A DNA stretch of 64,000 nucleotides from the NCBI RefSeq assembly GCF_022045235.1, contig NW_027266297.1:50902001-50966000 (forward strand). Direction: 5' to 3'. A program made the translations under genes and the position numbers. A model generated the notes under the pieces. That model did not search any database and was not told the DNA's origin. It saw nothing but the letters and a program-made list of their open reading frames with translations. Shown here in pieces: positions 1 to 13,500 of this stretch. This stretch comes from Haliotis cracherodii. Its lineage: Eukaryota. How positions within the stretch are numbered: the first letter of the stretch is position 1; each line of letters begins with the position of its first letter.

Positions 1-219
1 CCATATGGCAAAGTTTAACTGATTCTGCCAAAATTGCATCGGATTGTGAAACCAATCGTGCACCATTTTATCGCTAGTTGCAGTGACCCTGTATTTTTCA
101 AAGATATCAGGGAATTCAACAAAAAAATCAGCACCTGAGGCACGTACTAAAATCGACTGATTAGTAATGTATCTTGATTTCATATTTATGTTATGATATA
201 GTATCATTGTATATTTAAT

Positions 220-897
220 ATGTATGTCACACTCCGGGGAATAACAAATGGTCAGTCTATTGAACTGCTTCATACTATCGATAACTCGGATGGACAACTT
301 GAAGTCGCTATCTGTGATGTTACGTATTACCCGAGGTGGACCAATATAAATGATGCAAGACGTAATAATATATTTTCACTATTAGGTAGTATTGAAAAAT
401 ACATTATTATACCTGATGGGTATTACAGCGTATGCTCTCTCAATGATGAAATTTTTAAGCCTTTCGGAGCTAGTCTCACACAAAATGAGTCGAATGGGAT
501 GTTGAAATTAGACACTGGAGAAAGTCAAGTAAGGCTTTACACGAACTTAGCAGTTACACTTGGATTTGCACTCGGAGATATAACAGTAATCAAAACATCA
601 GCACAGGGAGTTAAATTACCCGATTTCGTTCCCCATAAAGAGTTGTGCATCCCTCTTGATCAAATCAGTACGACGGATAATATTCAACTAGAAAGTCCTT
701 CAATTCTACTCAGATCTATTACAGTAAAAGATGAAAAATACAATAGCGATAGAACGGACTCTTTCCCAACATTACAATACAAAAAATTAAAGCGTGGTAT
801 TATTTCAGACCTCAAAATTTCTGTATTAGATGTAAAACACCAACCTGTACATATAGGATACTTGAGTGTAACACTCCATATTATAAATAATGGTTGA
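220..897 (+). CDS. Polinton/adintovirus-like minor capsid (penton-like) protein, 225 aa
   Basis: Intronless open ORF with a beta-rich pattern. 'IPDGYYSVCSLNDEI' and the C-terminal 'LQYKKLKRGIISDLKISVLDVKHQPV...VTLHI' resemble the Polinton/PLV minor capsid pattern as I recall it. The stop overlaps the next ATG at 890. Confidence 0.6.
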   Translation: MYVTLRGITNGQSIELLHTIDNSDGQLEVAICDVTYYPRWTNINDARRNNIFSLLGSIEKYIIIPDGYYSVCSLNDEIFKPFGASLTQNESNGMLKLDTGESQVRLYTNLAVTLGFALGDITVIKTSAQGVKLPDFVPHKELCIPLDQISTTDNIQLESPSILLRSITVKDEKYNSDRTDSFPTLQYKKLKRGIISDLKISVLDVKHQPVHIGYLSVTLHIINNG

Positions 898-1661
898 TTC
901 ATCAGGCCCTGGAACACTCAGACAATGTAATACAATTGCAATTCCGATCTCGGAGACACAGAAGGATTCGGTAGACCCGGTACCAATGGTAAGTTATACG
1001 CTTTACACTTACAAGATAATGTATACAAGCGGAAAGAAGTTACATTCACAGGTAATCTAGGCGATTTAAGCGATGTCGACGTTGTTAGTAGACTCCTTAA
1101 AAAAATCACTTCGTACAATCTTACAACGATGATAATAAATGGACTATGGTCGAAGCAAATATCGAGTGGCTACTGAATATCGTCATTACCCCACCGTATG
1201 TGATGATGGGTAAGGCACATAATTTAACTAAGATAATAAATAGTGGCATCGTACTCGCGGCTTATATCCCATCAAAACGAAAAAGTGTGTTAGTCTCTCC
1301 CCTGCCAGAAAACCCAGGTCATATGTTATATAGTCGTCCAGCAGTAAAATATGTTAGTTTAAATTTGGTTACTGAATTCAATGAAATTAAACAGAACTCG
1401 AGTGCAATACCTAATCTTTCTATGCTTATTATTGAAATATTACCAGGCCAATCGATTAAATGGCAAAAGAAACACGAGCGTCAACGTTGTAGTATTATTC
1501 ATATTGGAGCTTCACCCGTTGCAACCCTTGAGGGGGTACAAATTATTAAAAGTGACAGCATTTCTCTTACTAAGATATTCTTGCCATATAATACTCATTT
1601 AATAAGGTTCATGTATACTCTCAAAACATTTAAGCAAGATCAATTAAAGACTATTATATGA
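890..1661 (+). pseudogene. Frameshifted virus-like ORF, possibly fibre/spike-like
   Basis: ATG at 890 overlaps the ORF1 stop. Reading across the A-run near 1099-1105 gives 'LGDLSDVDVV...SYNDDNKWTMVEANIEW', which joins ORF 1146-1661. Its TGA overlaps the next ATG (ATGA, 1658-1661). Confidence 0.35.
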
Positions 1662-2297
1662 CCGTAATATTAAAACTGAGTTTATATCCGGCGCTCGATG
1701 AGGCATTTGAAAAGATGGATACTGTTGATGGATTTCGATTACATCAAATAAGCGACATAAAACATCGAATAGAGAAGGAAAGGGAGTTGAGACTTGGATT
1801 GTATAAAAAGTATCACAGAGCCGTGAATGCTCCGGACGGAGTTGACACCGCGCTTCTAACAGCTGGCATGGGACTCGGTGTAGCCGGTGTTGGTTTATTA
1901 TCAACTATAATTGCCGCACCTATCGTACTTGGCATGGAAATAGCAGCTGGAGTCTCAGGACTGGCAGGAATAATGATAAAATTCATTTCCTCGTAGGTTG
2001 CAAAAGAAAGCATTAAAACACGATAATATTTGGATACTCGCCGAAGCAAAGTTGAACAGCATTGAGGATCATATTTCAACAGCAATGGCTGATTGTAAGA
2101 TATCCAAGGAGGAGTTTCATTTAGTGCTGTCAGAACTCACCAAATACAACGCAATGAAGCAGGAGATTCGATCAACATCTCGTAAGACCAGTGGTATTAG
2201 CTAAGACGAGAAAAAAAAGTTCATAGAACAGGGGAGGCAACAAGCGCGTCAATTATTCCGTGCCAAAACCAAAGAACTGGTTGGAGATTTAAAATAG
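1658..2297 (+). pseudogene. Polinton/adintovirus-type hydrophobic-hairpin membrane protein, disrupted
   Basis: Contains 'FRLHQISDIKHRIEKE..R..LYKKY' and a Gly/Ala-rich hydrophobic hairpin. Removing one base near 1991 restores 'FISRRLQKKALKHDNI..LAEAKLNSIEDHISTA..D.KIS.EEF'. The frame continues past an in-frame TAA (2202-2204) to TAG at 2295-2297. Confidence 0.6.
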
Positions 2298-2352
2298 ATT
2301 GCTTACTATTGTTAGATCACATTTAGACAAATGCTTACATAAATATATAATA

Positions 2353-2694
2353 ATGGAGAATTACAAACCAACAAAGGAAGAACTCGAAAAAGCTATCGAA
2401 ACATTTATGCTCAGGGACAAAATTATCAAATGGAGAGAATTACCACAAGGTATATATTATATTTGTGATGTCAAACCAACTAAATACGGTTATCAATTGT
2501 TTCTTACCAATTTCCAAAAAAAGTATATAGTCTGGTCTCCTAGTAAAATGAATGAAGAACTTAATAAAAATGTTGAATATAGCTTTGTTCAAAATAATGG
2601 TATACGTATTAATAAAAATAATAAAGAATATTTTCATTACAATTTAGTCTCATCTGTACTAATGACATCATTGATTGACTCCAGGTGGTTGTGA
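2353..2694 (+). CDS. Small virus-like hypothetical protein (113 aa from ATG 2353)
   Basis: AT-rich intronless ORF on the same strand and directly downstream of the cassette ('IIKWRELPQGIYYI...TKYG...YIVWSPSKM'). Confidence 0.4.
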   Translation: MENYKPTKEELEKAIETFMLRDKIIKWRELPQGIYYICDVKPTKYGYQLFLTNFQKKYIVWSPSKMNEELNKNVEYSFVQNNGIRINKNNKEYFHYNLVSSVLMTSLIDSRWL

Positions 2695-3846
2695 GCTAGA
2701 GTCAATTTAACTTAATCTCATGAGTATTGTTGAACATCATAGTCATATACACATAAAAAATGCCACCTGTACTGGTGATATAGGTATATAAAATATGGTT
2801 CCAGTGGAAGTGAGCCAGAATCACCATTACCTATACTACTTGATGTTATTTTAATCGCAGATTAATTTCCACTGTGCGGCAATTGGTTTCATCTACACAA
2901 GGGTGTTGACTCTTTTGCCACCTAGTGGCAACCTATCGGTAACTGATCAGTGATGAGGTGATGATCGACCGGCACTTCATCGGCGACTGGTTGTCGATCG
3001 GTTGCAAAGTGGTTTCCAAGAGTGTATCGATCATTCACCGTTGGGTTTGCAACATGTCACCGTCTATAAAAAGACCTGTCTGTTCGTTAAATTTCCAAAA
3101 ATTAAATATAAGCAACCCCTAAAAGCCCCCTCTTGAGTTGCACACACCACTTTCAGCCTTTTCGCAATATACTAAATGGCCCGGCCAGGCCTGTGTGCGA
3201 AATACGCTACAGTCGGAAAGCGCATGTTAAATCTCCAATATCAGTCAGTCAGTCGTTACAGCATCATTTGGTCATAAGTATTCAGAGAGTTCACATCAGT
3301 TATTTCCATTCATCACTATGGTCAGTAAAGGTAGGAAAATTAAAGAACCAGAAATTGTAGAAGATACAATAGAGAAAACTGCTGTGGTGCACAGGTCTGC
3401 TACAATTGAGCCAGAACCAACAACATCTCAACAAAGGAAGAGTAGAGGGAGCCAGGTTTACTGGGTACTCTAATTGTGACTTGCCTTCCATCTATGGCTC
3501 GAATTTGTCACTCAATTGGCGCCACTCTTCAGGTGTTGAGGGTGTCTTCATTACTTCATCACCATACTCTTAGATGATGGTTACTCAAACTTCACGAACA
3601 AATACTGATATTGTGTTGTGTGCCACTCTGAATGAGACAAGGCCGATATCAGGGGACGTCCCAAGGTCAGGTTCAACGGAAAAGAAATTTGCAACAATTT
3701 CAATGACCAGGGTTGTGCCAGAAAAAACTGTCTGTTTGAGCATGTCTACTTAACATGCAAGGGGCCAAGCCACGGGAAAAAACAATTGTAGTGACAAGAG
3801 AAAGAAGGTTTGACTGGATACCACCCCTAATGAATCCGCCATACCC

Positions 3847-5280
3847 ATGGAAACAGTGAGCACATCATCTTTACTCACTCCTATTAACCACGCCCGGTTA
3901 CAACTCGAACTGGCTCTTCATCCGGATATCCAGTTCACCAACTATTTGATCAATAGTCTAAGATACGGTTTCAACCCTTTAATTCATCCACTACCCACAA
4001 CTTCCATAGAGTGCAACAACAATTACAGTGTTAGAAAAGCCCAGGATACAGTGTCACTTCTTGTCAAATCAGAAGTTACAAAGGATTATGTTGCAGGTCC
4101 ATTTTCGACAGTGCCATATGCTGTATACAGGGTGAGCCCCCTCGGGTTGGCCATTGGTAAATACAGCCAGAAGAAGAGACTGATTCCAGACCTATCAGCC
4201 CCCTACGACAAACCAGAAATACTAAGCATCAACGAACTCATCGACAAAGATCAGTGTTCTCGTTCTTATGTGACAATTGACCATGCTATCGCTATCATCT
4301 CTAATCAAGGGCGTGGCGCCAAACTGTGTAAACTTGACATTTCGGACACTTTCAAACAGGTCCCAATAACAAATGCATTTATACCTTTCTTTGGATTCAA
4401 GTGGCAACAGCAGTACTACTTTTACAAACGGCTGGCCTTCGGATGTCGGTCAAGCCCAAAATTGTTTGTCACTCTGTCAGAAGCTTTATGCTGGATACTG
4501 CATCATAACTATGGCATTCAACACATTCTCCATCTCCTGGATGATTTCCTTACTATAGACTGCCCTGAAGCCGATGCCCAACAAACCATGACCAACCTGC
4601 GTAAACTGTTCCAAGAGATGTGCATCCCAATAGCCGAGCACAAGACAATGGGACCTGCCACAACCTTGGAATACCTGGGCATTAATCTGGATACCAACAG
4701 CTAGCCTACCACAAGATAAGCTGGACAGGATATCAGCCTTACTTCACGAGTTCTCCCAGGCAAGAAATTATACAAAGAGAGAACTCTTATCTTTATTGGG
4801 ACACTTAAGCTATGCTTGTAAGGTCATCATTCCCGGCAGATCTTTCATTTCTCACCTGTTGGATATAGCCAAATCAGTGAAGAAACTGCATCACCAGATA
4901 CATTTGTCTACAGCGTACCTACTCACATTGAAGATTCTCTCGCCTTCCTCGAACTGTATCCCATCGTAATAGCATCCGTACTTTGGGGACATAGTTGGAC
5001 TCGGTTAAGAGTATTATTCCATTGTGACAACCAAGCCACTGTACACATCATTCGCAAAGGGAGATCTAAATGCCAAAAAGTCATGTCTCTTATGCATACC
5101 CTAACACGGACGGCAGCAAAAGGCAATTTCATAGTATTAGCTAAGCACATCCCTGGGGTGCACAATGCTTTAGCTGATGCTCTTTCTCGTTCACAGCTGG
5201 ACCTGTTCCGCTCCCTACCCCCCGCAGCCCAGATCAAACCCATACAGTGCCCTCCAGCCTCTCAAATCATGTGGAATTGA
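3847..5280 (+). pseudogene. Ngaro reverse transcriptase and RNase H (frameshift/stop at about 4704; part of RNase H apparently deleted near 4920)
   Basis: RT motifs 'RVSPLGLA', 'KLDISDTF', 'LAFGCRSSP', 'HLLDDFL', 'EYLGINLD'. RNase H motifs 'LELYPIV..W....VLFHCDNQA' and 'HIPGVHNALADALSR'. Confidence 0.9.
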
Positions 5281-6266
5281 CAAGGCACCTGGACACATTA
5301 TGGTCAGCAGCCCTTGCCTCGCGGACAAAGGATACCTATGCTACTGGTGTTCAGTGCTACATCAACTTCATGATTAGTGTGAATTTGCTCACCAGGACAT
5401 GTCCAGGACTCCCACCGCTACACGAAAGCTACGTTCAGTTTTTCCTCGCCCACTGCTTCGGCAAGCTCAAGCTATCCTATACTACCGTTAAAACTTACCT
5501 GGCGGGCATCAGATATACTTACCTAGAAGCAGGAATACCAACACTCTTCGACTCTACCAACTCGGGCGCCAACGCACGTATTCAAACTTTTCTGCGTGGA
5601 TACAAGAAACTACAAGCCCCACCAAAAAGCAAGAGACTACCCATCACTTACAATATTCTGTGTCAAATTATCACTCTGCTGAAGAACGGCGTTCTGGGTC
5701 CTTTTAATGACTTTATCATGATTACTATGTGTACCGTTGCCTTCTTCGGCTTCCTCAGGTGTGGCAAGTTCACCTGTTCAGACAGTTTTGATGCAGATGT
5801 CAATTTATGTGTCCAAGATGTCATCTGCGATTATAACAGAAACAGATGTATCCTCACATTGAAAACTTGAAAAACTGACCCTTTCCGACTAGGAGTGGCC
5901 ATTTCCCCGTTTGCCACAAACAAGCCAGCTTGTCCGGTTTGAAGCCTCTCACAACTGATCCTCATAAGACGCAAGTGCGGGGCTCAGGCCCACGATCCCC
6001 TCTTCGTGGACAGCCGTTTCCATGCTATTACAAGGACTACATTTCTAAGATGGCTCAACATTATCATGTGTCGGATAGGCTTGAGCTCCAAATCTTATTC
6101 AGGACATTCATTCAGGATTGGCGCAGCTACCACGGCTGCACAAGTGAGAATGGAGGACCATCTCATCAAAACCCTGGGAAGATGGAGTTCAGACTGCTTC
6201 AACAGGTACATTCGAACCCCGGAAGATACCTTGAGACAAGCACAGATCTCCTTGTGTAACGTATAA
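5247..6266 (+). pseudogene. Ngaro tyrosine recombinase (internal stop 5868-5870 and frameshift)
   Basis: 'AFFGFLRCGKF', 'LK.*KTDPFR.G' and 'YSGHSFRIGAATTAA...IKTLGRWSSDCFNRYIR' (R..HxxR..W..Y). The HSFRIG form is typical of Ngaro. Confidence 0.9.
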
Positions 6267-7099
6267 TGTTTAACCATCAGAGTGCAATCTGCATATTAAC
6301 TTACCCCATCTTATGTGACGTTCAGGCTCGTGACTCCTGTGCAGTGTGACTTGTGCTATTTATGATGCAATCTGTGACTCCGTGGTGCGCAACTCAATCA
6401 TATTGTATCTTGTACAATGTGACATAAACTGTACTCTTGTGTAATAGTGGTGCTGGAGGAACTACAGACTCAGATAGTAGCCATGCCGTGCACATGACTA
6501 CTGCCACATACTGTGCCGTGTCCAAATGTGCTTTCTGACTTTGACACTTGGTTTTAACTGTGATTCAACAGTGTTTACTTCAAGCATACTTAGGTGTAAC
6601 ATGCATCACTGCCACTAGAATGTCGGTAACTTTCACATTTTTACATTTTTCTCCTTACATCTTACATATATATCCCTACTATTCATTGGGGGCTCTCGGT
6701 TGCCAACCTCCTTTGGGCCTTCAGCTCATTCAGTGCTTTTAATCGCCAGTACGGAAGCACAAAATGAGCTGACTAGCCCCCAATTCATACGGCGGCAGGA
6801 CACTACCTACATGGGCTTCCCGATCTTACACCAGGAACCGTCCAAAGGGATGTCCGGGGTCCACGACCCCAGGGCACCTAATCCCACCATTAGGTCCTCG
6901 CCTTCCTAACCACGGGTCCACGACCTACAGGTTACTTCCCTTGCCTTCTAACCGCGGGTCCACGACCTAAAGGTGATCCTTCACATCTAACATACCCAGG
7001 GTTGGCGACCCTCCGGCAACCAAGTAGCCCCCTCAATTCTCCAAAGATGTTGTAAATAAACATATTTTGACCTACATCATGTTTTGTTGTTTCTGCACC

Positions 7100-7690
7100 A
7101 AGTACGAGTTATTGAAACGTGACAGGCTCCATTCTGAGGTAGCCCACGAAATCACCACTCTGCCATCAGATTCTCATAGACTCCTAGCTGTGGCATTCTC
7201 GCCATCCAAGGTCTCGGAAAATACCGCCTTCGCCTTGTCCTTCTCATTCTTCTGTACATCATCATGGCAGCAACTGCAGCATTTTGTTTTATTCTTTGCA
7301 CGCAGAGCAACTGCAACTGTTCTTCTGTTAACATCTTAACAACTTTCAAAGAAATTATTTGATTCAGAAATGCACCCTTTTTAAATGCATTTTGTTTAGA
7401 TTGGTGATCGATCGACAACTAGTCACCAACCAGTCCCCGTTCAGTTGCAACAAGTCACCGAAGATTCGCTGACTTGTCACTGATCAGTCTCAACCAGTTG
7501 CAAACATTTCGGCGTATCTGCGGTGAACATGTACAGTTGCTGATCAATCACTGATTGATCAACGATCATACCCTAACTCCAAATATGGACAGAAGTAGTT
7601 GCACCGGTCTCAGCGATTGCCAGTCGGTCGCAAAAGAAATCGGTCGCCAAGAGGTTGCATCGCGGTGGCATTGTCTGTGTGACTGTAGCT
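7100..7690 (-). mobile_element. PIF/Harbinger-like DNA transposon end with the N-terminal part of its transposase
   Basis: Minus strand reads 'RRRRYFPRPWMARMPQLGVYENLMAE' then 'DFVGYLRMEPVTFQ', a Harbinger transposase N-terminus. The terminus reads TAA|AGCTACAGTCACACAG on the minus strand (TTA at 7691-7693, a Harbinger-type target). Subterminal GTTGCA/GATCGA motifs recur at 2930-3060. Confidence 0.7.
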
Positions 7691-9250
7691 TTACAGATGG
7701 ATCTGCCATGACAAGCAGTTACAGTAGATTTTAACTTCCATCACCTGAGTGCCACACATTTAGTAGGCATATTGAACATTTATTGTTTATATTTCATGTT
7801 TGTTTATGCCACCAATGTGTGTGGATACTATTGGCATATTTCATATCATGATTAGTACTGTGATATTCTATTTATAATGTATTCATGTCCTAGTATAAGC
7901 TATATATTTGTGAACTGTATGTATGTATACTTTACATCTGGTACATATAAGTGCATTCATGCAGTTTAAGTGATATGTATCACAGAGATAATGATTTATG
8001 TGTATTCATCAAAACTAAGTTCTGAATATTATATATGGAGAACACCTTGATTAATGTGGTGAATGCATTTTAATCATTAAATCAATAACGGTGATATGTG
8101 CATGAGATTTACACCACCCTAACCTGCTACAGACCTGAGGCCCTAGGATACACGGCATGGGTTTCCATTACAGGGAACACTAACCAGGCAAACCCTCAAC
8201 AGCAGATGGGCCATTGCATATCAAACTGTACGTGTTGCACCAACGTTGATTTGGATTATTTGCACATGCCTATATGCAAGGAATCAGTGTATGGTTCTTG
8301 GTAGTCGATCACTTAGTATAAATGTTATATCATGATAACTATATATTACCTAAGTTTTCCTATAATAATTAGATCCACATCAAGTGCTTTTATGAGTTAT
8401 CATGGTGTAATATTTATACATCATTTCATAAAATTATACTTTAGCAAGTAATACTTATCATCAGGTAAAATGCATATATAAAATATCAGTAGTTTCAGTT
8501 GTAACTTTTTAGATAGAAGCTAGCCTAAGGTAATGGGAGTGCATCTCCTAGACATACTATTCAATAAGACAAGAGTTATGTCTACATAGTTTAATAGATT
8601 TGAAGCTTTTAGATAAATCCTAACCTAAGGTATCAAGACCCCATCTCCCAGACAAAAGATATGTCTACATAGTCTTATAGATTACCTTGAACTATTTTAT
8701 TTAAGTAAATCTGTCATCACCTATATTAGAATAACATTCAGCAATTACTTCAATCTAGACTCATTAAGGATTAGCCCCAATACAAGCTCGTCTGTAGTGA
8801 CACCATACCCGGTAATCTCTTTCAAAGCACCCAGTAAATATGTCAACAAGATTAGTGCCAGTCCAACAGGATTAACAGGATTAACAGGATTAAGTATTCC
8901 CCACTGTCTAGCCATTCATTAACCATAAGGCACAGCCCATCGTGTATCAACCAATCATATTCCTTTTTATTGTTCTAATTTTTGTTAAAGACATACAAAA
9001 GCCAAATGTTAAGCAGAAGGGGTTTGACGCTCATACCAGGCAGATCTCTCTCACAGTACCGACTCTCTGTGGCACCCTCAGCTATTTTCTAAGATATTGT
9101 AAATTGCTCATTGTTAATTGTTCTTGTAGGTCTAGGTTGAGGCTGTACATCAGCTGGCAGGGTGACTGAGTCGCTCCAGTAATTTTGGCAAAATTACTGG
9201 CAATAGGGTATTTTCGTGTCCCAAAATGTTTGCCATCATCTTTTTGAAGT

Positions 9251-10394
9251 ATGCCAGACGTTAGAATGAGCGACGAATTAAAAAGTAAACCAAAGAAAAA
9301 GAAGGCCTCCTCGGATAGCGATTGTCAACTACTGCACAAAATGGCGATGAACAGCCCGACACCCACAAGCGGAGACTCACCAACTGTTTTTTCTCAACAA
9401 CACTTGTCACAAGCTATCCCTCAAGGATACCTATCTACACGTACAAACCCGCAACTAGTTGGTATGTACCAGCCCTACACCCATCCTAATTTAATGACAA
9501 ATGTGCCTTATTCCTCGCTATACAGTGAATCTGACAAAATGGGAGGCCCTTTGTGGGTGAAAGAACTTTTCAAAGAAATAGCTGATGTGAAAACACAAGT
9601 CTCCAAAATTGATGAAGTAAACAGTGAACTCTCTAAGATTAAAGTGCATTTGTGTACTCTTGACCACAAAGTGCAATTAATTGAGACCATGAAAACTTCA
9701 GTGTCAGACTTGGAGAAAAGTGTCAACTTTATGAATTTGCAGTTTGAAGATTGGCGGAAAGAGAAAGCGGAACTAGAAGTAAAAATAAAAGATGTACAGG
9801 ACAACTTACAGTCTAAGAATTTCGAATTATTGCAGTTTCATCAGTTGCAATTGAAAGAAGAAGTGATTAATCTACAGGTGCGTTCAATGGCCACAAATTT
9901 ACTGTTCATGAACATCCCTGAAACAAGCTCCCCTACAGAAGATACAACTACTGTCTTGACTGACTTCATTAAACAAAAAATTGATATATCTGATGCTCAT
10001 ATAGAGAAAGTTCACCGTCTGGGGGGATTCAAAGGAGGTAATCCCAAGCCAAAGACCAATCATTGCCCGATTTCGGTCAGTCAAAGATAGTGACAAGGTG
10101 AGATACGCTGCATATGGAAAGTTGAAAGGTTCTCCATACACAGTTGCAGAGCAGTTCCCTGATGCCGTGAGAGAGTACCGGAAGTTGGTTCTGTACCCTT
10201 TGATGAGACAAGCCAGAACAGATAACAAGAAATGCCGTATTGTTGTGGACAGAATCTACATTGATGGCAAACAGTTCTTCCCGGATACCTCTCCCCCATA
10301 TCGACCACCCCTACCCAGGAAAGAGTTCACCATGGCCACCCGTTCTCCACTCAGTGTACACCCTTCAATGGATACCTCGAACCCGAGAACATAG
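9251..10394 (+). pseudogene. LINE ORF1 (coiled coil plus RRM-like domain), frameshifted near 10050
   Basis: Long coiled coil, then 'RSMATNLLFMNIPE', 'IEKVHRLG', (frameshift) 'PRPIIARF', 'VAEQFPDAVREYRK', 'RIVVDRIYIDG'. Confidence 0.82.
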
Positions 10395-10589
10395 GACACT
10401 CACAGCGGACACTACCCACAGCCTACTGTCAATGCTGAACAATCAGAAAACCAATCTAATAGAAATAATAACTTGCCCCTAGTTTACCATAATACAAGTG
10501 TTGATACAATCTCTGATACCAGTAGCTTGTATGGAAATGGATGAATATACAGTGAAGTAAGTGTACAAAGTAACCCCAATAACAAACAA

Positions 10590-13500
10590 TTGAAAGTTTT
10601 ATCTCTAAATGTTTGTGGATTTCGTAGTAAGTTAAAATATCCAGAGTTTCATAAACTTCTCAATTCCTGTGATATTATTGGTCTACAAGAAACCAAAACA
10701 GATGAGTTGGATGTTAGTATAGACATCAAAGATTATACTGTTATTCTCAAAAATAGAAACACGACAGGTCGAAGGTCAGGAGGTCTAAGAATTCTCATTA
10801 AAAATGAAATAGCACCTTACTGTTGTCCCATCTGACAGTGATATATCCTTGTGGATACGTATCAATAAGGTAATGCTAAGTACAGATGTGATCTTTGTAT
10901 TGGATTTGTTTATATCCCACCTGTTAACTCTAGGTATGCAAGCGCCGTCATTTTCAGGATTTGTCAAGTGATATTCTTAATATACAAGATATTACAAGAT
11001 ATTTCTATCTTTTAGGAGATTTTAATGCCCATACAAGTATTCTTGAAGATACATGTGTCATCAACACCACTGTTAGCCATTCCATTGGTGTAGAGGACTC
11101 TGAGATGGAGAACTTTAAAAATGATGATATTTTTTAATTAAATTACGTGTCGCCACTAAGAGTCTCTCAAGACAGGTCTGAACCAAACAGACATGGTCGT
11201 CAACTCATTGAAATGAGTAAAACTTTACCTCTTCTTATATTAAACGGAAGATTGGGAAAAGATAAAAACATCGGTGCTGTCACCTGTAAAGACTGTAGTG
11301 TTATTGATTATGTTGTGTCATCGTATGAAGCTGTCCCTTTAACCAAAGACTTTCAGATCTTGGACTTTGATTGTTTATATAGTGATGCTCATTGTCCCCT
11401 CCAACTGACTTTACTACCTGAGGTACAGGCAGCTGACACTTGGCAAGAGCTACCTGACACCTTCTAACGAGGGGAAGCCACGACGATTCGATATGGACAA
11501 ACGACAACAGTTCGTGACAGGTGTTGACCTCGCACGCATCAACTGCATGACAGAAAAAGCAAGTGCTGCACGTGAGGGTCGAGGTGACCCAGTTGCTGTT
11601 ATCGATAATGTTGTATCAGAGTTAAACACATTGTTTGTGAATACAACTGGTGATGTGTTCGGTACTATGAAAAAACAGCCCATAAGTTCAAGCTTGAAAA
11701 TAACTTTCATAAATGGTATGACCAAGATTGTCGTAATATGAAAAGAATATACAGGAAAAAAAGAAGAAAATTAAAAGTTTCAAAAAACCCTCTAGATACA
11801 ACAAGTTAATAAAGACTACAAAAGAATCTTAAAGAAAAAGTATTTAAACCATGTGCATTTTATGAAAGGCAAGTTTTCTTATATGGCCCGTCACTATGTG
11901 AAAGGTTTTTGGAAATATTTTAAAGATAAACCTGGCCCTAGCTCCAAGAATGTCTCATTTGATGAACTTTATAACTACTTTAAAGACATTAATAGTGCTA
12001 CAGATGAAAGTGACTGTTTTGTAACACAGCCAAACGACATTGATAATGATCTCAACAAAAGCTTTGACACTAAAGAAATATAAGAAGCAATTAATAAACT
12101 TAAAAATTAAGAAAGCATCAGGTATAGACATGATTGAAAATGAATATATTATTTCAGCCAAATCTATTCTTTTAAAATTGTATTGCAAACTGTTAAATCT
12201 AATTTTACAGACAGGACATTTGCCTGAACCGTGGTTAATGGGAATGATCAAACCAATTTATAAGAAAATGGGGGATGTTTCCAAACCAGAAAACTATAGA
12301 CCAATAACCATTTTATCCTGCCTAGGGAAATTGTTTACAAGTGTTATCAATCTGCATTTAACACGTTATGTTGAAAGTAATGAAATACTATCTAAAGCTC
12401 GAGCGGATTCCGTAAAGGATACTCTACTGTTGATAATGTCTACATTTTGAATAGTATCATTGAACTATTGAAATATTCAGGTAAAAAATTATTTTGTGTT
12501 TTTGTCGATTTTCAAAAAGCCTTTGATAATGTGTGGAGGAATGGACTGTGGCTTAAACTTGTAAGCTATGGTATTTCAGGAAAATTATTTACTCTTATAA
12601 GGAATATGTACAATGATATTAAGTCATGTATTTGTCTAAACGGTCAAATATCAGGTTTTTTCAACTGTGGTGTCCGTCAAGGAGAAAATCTGTCGCCTTT
12701 GTTATTGGCTATTTTTTTGAACGACATAGAAACCTATTTGCAATCTAATAATTGTGATGGTATCAACATTGGTACACTTAAACTTTTCCTTCTTTTATAT
12801 GCTGATGATACGGTGCTCTTTGCTGAATCCCCTGAAGGTCTACAGCACTGTTTCGATAATTTCGAGAAATACTGCACTGAATGGAGTATGCGAAAAACAA
12901 AGGTTATTATCTTTGGCACTTCTGCAATTATTCTGCGTGAGAAAAGGTATGTTTTTAAAATTCATAATGTTGAACTAGATAATTGTGATTGTTACACTTA
13001 TCTAGGTATAAAGTTTTACGTATACATGAACCAAAAATTTAACCAAGCCATAATATCTCTTAAGGAACAAGGACTTAAAGCTATGTATTATTTGTTATCC
13101 AAAGCTAGAAACTTAAATCTACCATTAGATTGTTTATTCATTGCGTTCGACCACGTGGTTGTTCCAATTCTTCTATACTGTTGTGAAGTCTGGGGCTTTA
13201 CAGGCTCTTCTATAATTGAAAATGTCCACAAGTTGTTTTTAAAATTATGTTTAAGATTACGTCAGAGCACACCCACTTATATGCTATATGGCGAGACAGG
13301 TCGCCTACCACTCGATATTATTGTTAAAAAACGAGTATTGGCCTTTTGGTGCAACCTGATATTGTCACAAAATTTAAGTAAGCTCTCTGTTGTCATGTAT
13401 AAGACTTTATATCAAAAACACTGTAATGACATTTTTCATTTACCTTGGTTGTTATACGTCAAAAACATTCTGGATAGCTGTGGTTTAAGTTATGTTTGGC

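Follow-up and report, generated by a model that had tools for sequence, protein, structure and literature searches.

A decayed Polinton, a 166-bp repeat and a truncated Ngaro retrotransposon nested in a non-autonomous Harbinger element of Haliotis cracherodii

According to our analysis, the virus-like genes at the left edge of the window, a 64,000-nucleotide stretch of Haliotis cracherodii DNA (NW_027266297.1, positions 50,902,001 to 50,966,000), are explained as part of a Polinton, and the locus is very probably a chance nest in which a 19.6-kb Polinton, a 166-bp repeat and a truncated Ngaro element each entered a settled 1.44-kb Harbinger separately. The initial annotation had proposed that a Harbinger-like element mobilised a capsid-bearing cassette as cargo, with a single chance nested insertion as the simpler alternative; it is the latter that is supported, by junctions confined to one locus and by the Polinton's own terminal inverted repeats (TIRs) and target site duplication (TSD).

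The host element is delimited by a right terminus, GTGACTGTAGCT, whose last base is 7690 and which is followed by the TSD TTA at 7691-7693 (plus strand), and by a left terminus at L014:3054, preceded by the same TTA (L014:3051-3053) and located 16,947 bases before the window begins, where a TTA-preceded left TIR had been predicted. Intact TIRs (approximately 50-57 bp, 84-86% identity between the two) and TTA duplications border a span of 24,637 bp, and since both termini were located, the viral genes and the Ngaro element sit between them. A 231-bp left arm (L014:3054-3284) carries on beyond the Polinton as Harbinger interior at 2846-3088, which is assigned to the element because 15 other family copies align to it at 84-91%; further interior sequence (3255-3634, minus strand) and the right arm (7102-7690, minus strand) follow. 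The inverted recurrence of subterminal motifs noted earlier is confirmed as a 19-nt pair at 2982-3000 and 7409-7427 (89%).

Minus its inserts, the Harbinger is a 1.44-kb non-autonomous element that retains a transposase remnant, a length that leaves little space for a MADF/Myb DNA-binding gene; none of the MADF type was noticed. The N-terminal part of the transposase, recognised in the initial annotation together with the TTA-flanked end, lies at 7214-7103 (minus strand) and corresponds to residues 46-88 of a 426-aa PF13359 protein, while a second decayed remnant at about 3635-3433 covers residues 131-208; most of the catalytic core is missing. These two parts are all that is left here; they carry stops and frame changes, and no intact DDE transposase is present. 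Direct Pfam scans of the remnants returned nothing relevant, and a sibling fragment matches HARBI1/PF13359 proteins with a best E value of 9e-44. A full transposase was found in none of the 47 stretches of the family, the longest remnant spanning residues 64-297 of 426. The sibling L139, with a 3.6-kb Harbinger span, was considered as an autonomous copy and rejected, as its transposase is a remnant and it holds another insert. TTA or TAA stands at 18 of the 20 readable ends of 13 siblings, 6 of the 26 ends being unread by the pattern. With its TIRs, its TTA/TAA TSD and its DDE_Tnp_4-derived sequence, the host is a non-autonomous PIF/Harbinger derivative.

Window bases 1-2840 (plus strand) form the final, right-hand 2.84 kb of an adintovirus-like Polinton/Maverick element, 19,556 bp long, that starts upstream at L014:3285 (G000:C34:50885285) and is equipped with TIRs, a TSD and an integrase of its own; there is no separate cassette. 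The right TIR (2667-2840, plus strand, ending in ACTACT) differs from the left one at 12 of 174 bp (93% identity). Both are AGTAGT-ended, a start that we take to be a mark of the Polinton/Maverick family, and they are accompanied by a 5-bp duplication of Harbinger sequence, TGATG, found at 2841-2845 (plus strand) and again directly before the left end, and present once in sibling Harbingers, which show the Polinton's target as an empty site. The part upstream of the window holds an integrase (PF00665, E = 3.1e-7, 31 bits, slightly below the cut-off of 32.6), a protein-primed polymerase in several frames and a major capsid gene in two (Capsid_N, E = 5.5e-5, 23.3 bits versus a cut-off of 24), and is interrupted by a tyrosine-recombinase retroelement of about 5.3 kb. 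The polymerase gene is split; its fragment at L014:4382-5692 has pPolB homologs about 58-77% identical, mostly annotated PF03175, and itself gave no match in Pfam, PDB sequence or plasmid searches. The ORF adjoining the capsid gene (L013:5889-6314) has a weak match to PF05707 (Zot, E = 0.036), a family presumably kin to P-loop ATPases, and may encode a packaging ATPase. No adenain-like protease was matched among the longer, unbroken Polinton ORFs scanned.

Within the window, an open ORF of 224 aa (223-897, plus strand) is predicted to encode the penton, a minor capsid protein with a single jelly roll. Its AlphaFold model has a low mean pLDDT of 57; a Foldseek search with it placed the mavirus penton on top in the PDB (E = 1.7e-6), and matches in BFVD include a MELD-virus penton (E = 1.3e-6). 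Pfam was blank for this and four other viral ORFs. An Atlas search of the viral ORFs gave unnamed clusters, with DUF5901 in 14% of members as a lead only. Of the Polinton/Maverick features, the element has TIRs, a TSD in the 5-6-bp range, a protein-primed PolB, a retroviral-type integrase, and a major and a (predicted) minor capsid protein.

The assignment of the left edge to the Polinton changes how its sequence is read. The motifs at 1-90 had been taken as weak Harbinger motifs, whereas bases 1-200 reach a best E value of only 1.6 against 13 sibling Harbingers and are colinear with the upstream DNA in eight of nine Polinton loci, and partly (54-200) in the ninth. The motifs likewise occur in six Polinton copies, and the 64-kb window as a whole contains 67 GATTG and 64 CAATC. 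The junction suspected near 160 does not exist, bases 1-160 being Polinton interior, and the one suspected near 2930 is real and lies at 2840/2841. The capsid-like module does lie between the Harbinger ends, as had been suggested for the left arm, not as a cassette but as the right end of a Polinton.

The Ngaro element is, as first proposed, inside the Harbinger. It occupies 3635-7101 (plus strand) and comprises the end of ORF1, RT/RNase H, a tyrosine recombinase (YR) and one B repeat (6714-7101), with domain matches to RVT_1 (E = 1.7e-12), RVT_3 (E = 0.018), an integrase SAM-like domain (E = 0.001) and Phage_integrase (E = 0.0025). The full-length sibling L131 (6,375 bp) has the split direct repeats A1-[ORFs]-B1A2B2, with A of 588 bp and B of 387 bp, each 100% identical; the window copy is 93-97% identical to it and is missing 1.8 kb from its 5' side as well as A2-B2, with a single B left. 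RT/RNase H with a tyrosine recombinase, and split repeats at the level of the family, place it in Ngaro (DIRS order). Approximately 42 transposase codons are gone at its left junction. The third insert (3089-3254) is an unclassified high-copy repeat of 166 bp with a (CAGT)n end, which is absent from the siblings at this place, has further copies in L015, L116 and L139, and shows very high contig depth; an Rfam search of 2800-3700 gave no match. The Harbinger pieces flanking each insert are colinear with uninterrupted siblings.

If the Harbinger family amplified a viral structural module as cargo, it would be a second Teratorn-like route by which viral capsid genes spread. The viral genes do stand between two Harbinger termini, and virus-transposon fusions exist, Teratorn being the case described in PMC6431247; we nevertheless regard this as extremely unlikely, and within the limits of the searches it is refuted. 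The same junctions were expected at several loci with different flanks, and in genome-wide pattern searches each of the four nest junctions has an exact match at this locus only. With one mismatch allowed, totals against the control patterns were 18 versus 12, 12 versus 15, 1 versus 0 and 2 versus 4, that is, at control level; these patterns cover exact and one-mismatch copies, those with two or more changes escaping. Of the 28 non-self one-mismatch matches to the Polinton junctions, 20 were inspected and none joins Harbinger to Polinton: 2 are Polinton ends that lie in DNA other than Harbinger, and the remaining 18 match neither element. Outside this set are 8 further matches, 7 of which carry the mismatch within the Polinton end, and one extra match at another junction. 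In the genome DNA searches, which score 40 candidates, the left junction is spanned at this locus alone (1 of 40), and none of the 47 sibling Harbinger stretches contains Polinton or Ngaro DNA. Contigs of four runs over 2700-8500 include no junction-bridging piece among the matches listed, to which we give no weight as evidence. The three observations named at the outset as contrary to cargo mobilisation were therefore all made: single-copy junctions, Harbinger copies free of viral DNA, and bases 1-160 unlike Harbinger; moreover, the supposed cargo has integration marks of its own.

Nor do the other Polinton copies point to the Harbinger as a favoured target of the Polinton integrase, a reading that is just as improbable. 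It would account for the low expectation under uniform insertion, 0.02-0.15 events of a Polinton in this Harbinger per genome, but none of the 38 other Polinton ends lies in this Harbinger family, and the genome-wide patterns show no second insertion at the same site. Three of the 38 have flanks matching sibling Harbingers, either in a stretch that only L025 has, taken to be a separate insert, or outside the elements; lying outside the Harbinger proper, they were not counted. Three Polinton copies that match past 2840 (to 2847-2854) have no Harbinger, and in L134, where a Polinton end lies about 775 bp ahead of the same Ngaro position, the intervening DNA is Ngaro ORF1 and the junction is different. 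Given that expectation, the nest would be a rare coincidence in the absence of local clustering of insertions, but Polinton ends do cluster. The scale of this Polinton family is the by-product of more interest: its exact terminus occurs 1,516 times genome-wide versus 5 for the reversed-pattern control, the termini cluster strongly along the genome, and a 5-bp TSD is common to all eight other plus/minus end pairs less than 25 kb apart (seven independent).

A single move is a further alternative to a pile-up. The Polinton might have entered the Harbinger elsewhere, a Harbinger transposase acting in trans then moving the composite of about 21-25 kb here once and leaving one copy, so that a cut-and-paste MITE would have relocated an entire endogenous DNA virus. 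Such a move is compatible with single-copy junctions, as cut-and-paste leaves one copy, and with the TIRs and TTA preserved around the full span; the survival of both Harbinger ends and TSDs is also an observation that runs against the preferred explanation, and no empty allele came to light at the locus. The age intervals of the two elements overlap and are not cleanly separated by their divergence: the Polinton TIRs differ by 6.9% (95% interval 3.6-11.7%), and Harbinger copies diverge from one another by about 11%. Against a single move, no full transposase was found in the family stretches, the Polinton appears younger than the Harbinger in each of the three segments, and transposition efficiency is reported in PMC6431247 to be lower above 6 kb of cargo. 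In addition, a contig of a run labelled as another species reads through this end of the Harbinger and on into the flank found here (7609-7917, 9 differences), which means that the Harbinger has occupied the site for a long time. We therefore consider the single move very unlikely.

The preferred explanation remains the chance nest: the Polinton brings ends and an integrase gene of its own and the nest is single-copy, so an ordinary pile-up is likelier than cargo transport. Terminal branches are longest for the Harbinger (0.062-0.067), shorter for the Polinton (0.045) and shortest for the Ngaro (0.019), which suggests that the order was probably Harbinger, Polinton, Ngaro. After the Harbinger had settled, the Polinton, the 166-bp repeat and the Ngaro element would have arrived one after another by their own routes, the Polinton presumably through its retroviral-type integrase. 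A later deletion probably removed the Ngaro 5' 1.8 kb together with about 120 bp of Harbinger, and recombination between B repeats probably cost the Ngaro its A2. The whole composite is probably immobile debris.

Nests of known mobile elements are common, and PMC8547959 already describes YR retroelements and Polinton-like elements inserted into one another, so the locus has little significance as it stands. Among the paper titles searched, none concerned this locus or family, and we make no claim of unpublished status. The Polinton shares with the Polintons/Mavericks (adintoviruses) described in PMC8502044 the protein-primed PolB, rve integrase, major capsid, penton, TIRs and short TSD, the TSD being 5-6 bp for Mavericks/Polintons in PMC8547959; it differs from them in its split PolB and major capsid genes, the retroelement that interrupts it, its weakly supported ATPase and the great abundance of its family. 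The Harbinger resembles the non-autonomous PIF/Harbinger elements of PMC13668399 in its TIRs, 3-bp TTA TSD, DDE_Tnp_4 (PF13359) remnant and many deleted copies of 0.4-2.0 kb, but no intact transposase was found in its 47 stretches, and three inserts break up the present copy. As in Cafeteria, where PMC8547959 describes Ngaro elements nested with endogenous virophages, the Ngaro family here has A1-[ORFs]-B1A2B2 repeats (L131), RT/RNase H and YR; unlike there, the host is an animal, the Ngaro lies beside the Polinton within a Harbinger, and the Polinton itself holds another YR element. Teratorn, the piggyBac-herpesvirus fusion, likewise has viral genes between cut-and-paste TIRs, but PMC6431247 describes both the element and its transposase as active, whereas here there is one locus, a dead transposase and a virus-like part with integration marks of its own.

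According to our analysis, the locus arose by ordinary nesting, a single case among element types already known, in which a small, broken PIF/Harbinger transposon holds a Polinton (Maverick), a 166-bp repeat and a truncated Ngaro retrotransposon. The initial observation holds in part: the nest is real and deeper than was thought, whereas the idea that the Harbinger mobilises viral structural genes is not supported.

The assembly searched comprises 1.18 Gb in 80 contigs, where the Harbinger right arm (7102-7690) yielded 49 matches in the best 40 scored candidates, the longer ones at 73-88% identity. The left end, which the initial annotation proposed to look for upstream of the window, was located by comparing the window plus the DNA upstream of it against itself. 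It lies 16,947 bases upstream of window base 1; the element reads AGCCTCAGTCACACAG...GTGTGACTGTAGCT, is flanked by TTA on both sides and spans 24,637 bp with its inserts. In 13 sibling copies, the equivalents of the left arm (231 bp), 2846-3088, 3255-3634 and 7102-7690 are consecutive within 1.2-2.0 kb; without inserts, these four pieces total 1,443 bp at the locus. The open frame of one sibling resembles HARBI1/PF13359 transposases (72 proteins; best E 9e-44, 66% identity), and TTA duplications together with DDE and MADF genes mark the Harbinger family in excerpts of PMC13668399. Compared with a 426-aa homolog, the transposase remnant in the window retains residues ~46-88 to the right of the Ngaro and 131-208 to its left, with ~42 codons gone at the Ngaro junction. 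A full transposase was found in 0/47 Harbinger family stretches, and the copy at the locus is a non-autonomous deletion derivative. Judged by eye from the flanks of L025, L026 and L032, three of the 13 siblings appear to lie at one identical TAA within another common repeat, which could mean that they prefer this target or that the repeat carried them. At L022, a Harbinger copy has a duplicate 5.5 kb from it, which is a segmental duplication or an assembly duplicate.

Window 1-2840, including bases 1-200, which were considered and rejected as a Harbinger arm, belongs to the Polinton; it recurs genome-wide at about 84-91% identity, and many matches end at about 2840, where the right end reads ...TACCTATACTACT. 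Eight other right ends have eight different flanks. The terminal 174 bp recur inverted, at 93% identity with 12 mismatches, at position 3285 of L014, one of two 10-kb stretches (L014, L013) directly upstream of the window. Just outside each end lies one copy of a TGATG duplication; sibling Harbingers have this site a single time. This 19,556-bp element is a Polinton/Maverick (adintovirus), a family with self-sufficient integration according to excerpts of PMC8502044. Its terminal 15-mer has 1,516 exact genome occurrences against 5 for the control, implying several hundred elements. Among 30 ends fetched, a 5-bp duplication was common to 8/8 +/- pairs within 25 kb and absent in three pairs 77-287 kb apart. 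At L055-L058, a Polinton is duplicated 50 kb away with 300-bp flanks 100% identical, again a segmental or assembly duplicate.

Besides an integrase gene (rve, E 3e-7), the Polinton retains the remnant of a major capsid gene (Capsid_N, E 5.5e-5) and a split polymerase, the largest piece of which resembles PF03175-annotated proteins. The predicted fold of ORF 223-897, a model of modest confidence (pLDDT 57), resembles that of the mavirus penton (E 1.7e-6) as well as those of minor capsid proteins from viruses. ORFs at 1634-2290 and L013:8336-8935 have glycine-rich hydrophobic stretches, lack a useful Pfam match and possibly encode membrane-active virion proteins. A ~5.3-kb stretch (L014:9881 to L013:5174), missing from the sibling L156, encodes an RT/RNase H retroelement with gag-like and recombinase-like frames, and has zero nucleotide match to the window Ngaro.

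Matches to other Ngaro copies start at 3635 and stop at 7101. The sibling at L131:2182-8556 is complete (6,375 bp), with the layout A1-ORFs-B1A2B2 described in excerpts of PMC8547959, and is probably a very recent insertion, since its A and B repeats are 100% identical. The window copy begins within ORF1, without the first 1.8 kb, and stops exactly at the B end; this form probably arose by recombination between B1 and B2 and by loss of DNA spanning the left junction, including ~120 bp of the Harbinger. The 166-bp repeat (3089-3254), a further insert in the Harbinger, ends in (CAGT)n and has no Rfam match; its contig depth sums to 5e4-2e5 in four runs. Elsewhere, at L134:2934-2936, another Polinton right end adjoins ORF1 of a same-family Ngaro through a different junction. 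Downstream of the nest, 9248-12083 holds a decayed LINE-like element with an ORF1-like frame that contains a coiled coil and another frame for an endonuclease (Exo_endo_phos E 1.2e-4).

The four junction patterns each match exactly at this locus alone, and with one mismatch allowed the counts are comparable to those of the controls (18 vs 12, 12 vs 15, 1 vs 0 and 2 vs 4). The Harbinger-Polinton join was absent from the 20 of 28 Polinton-junction near-matches that were fetched, and in a DNA search the left junction was spanned at this locus only (best 40 of 1,909 candidates). Polinton or Ngaro DNA occurred in 0/31 and 0/16 Harbinger stretches, and Harbinger in 0/38 Polinton flanks, once three matches, which fell in an insert peculiar to a single sibling or in flanks, are set aside. 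Under uniform insertion and assumed copy numbers, only 0.02-0.15 nests of this kind are expected, which counts against nested insertion; this objection is weakened because Polinton insertions are non-uniform, with 86 ends out of the first 100 on the list lying within 5.3 Mb of one contig (C1:38.7-44.0 Mb, the densest among the matches listed). That the whole composite moved once as a unit is compatible with its intact Harbinger ends and with the single assembly examined, but we deem it highly improbable. Transposition efficiency is reported to drop above 6 kb of cargo in the excerpted text of PMC6431247.

Among the pieces of this locus, three Harbinger segments have terminal branch lengths of 0.065, 0.067 and 0.062; the Polinton end has 0.045 and the Ngaro 0.019. 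The Polinton TIR pair diverges by about 0.035 per side, though the interval is wide. In a run labelled as a different species, one contig continues across the right end of the Harbinger and on into the flank found here (7609-7917, 9 differences), and contigs of two same-label runs cross that end too. These data fit the order Harbinger, Polinton, Ngaro, with Harbinger and Polinton ages not sharply separated. Teratorn, the known virus-transposon fusion, has an active transposase according to the same excerpts (PMC6431247), whereas this locus is without one; the ~5.3-kb retroelement inside the Polinton recalls Ngaro-in-virophage nesting.
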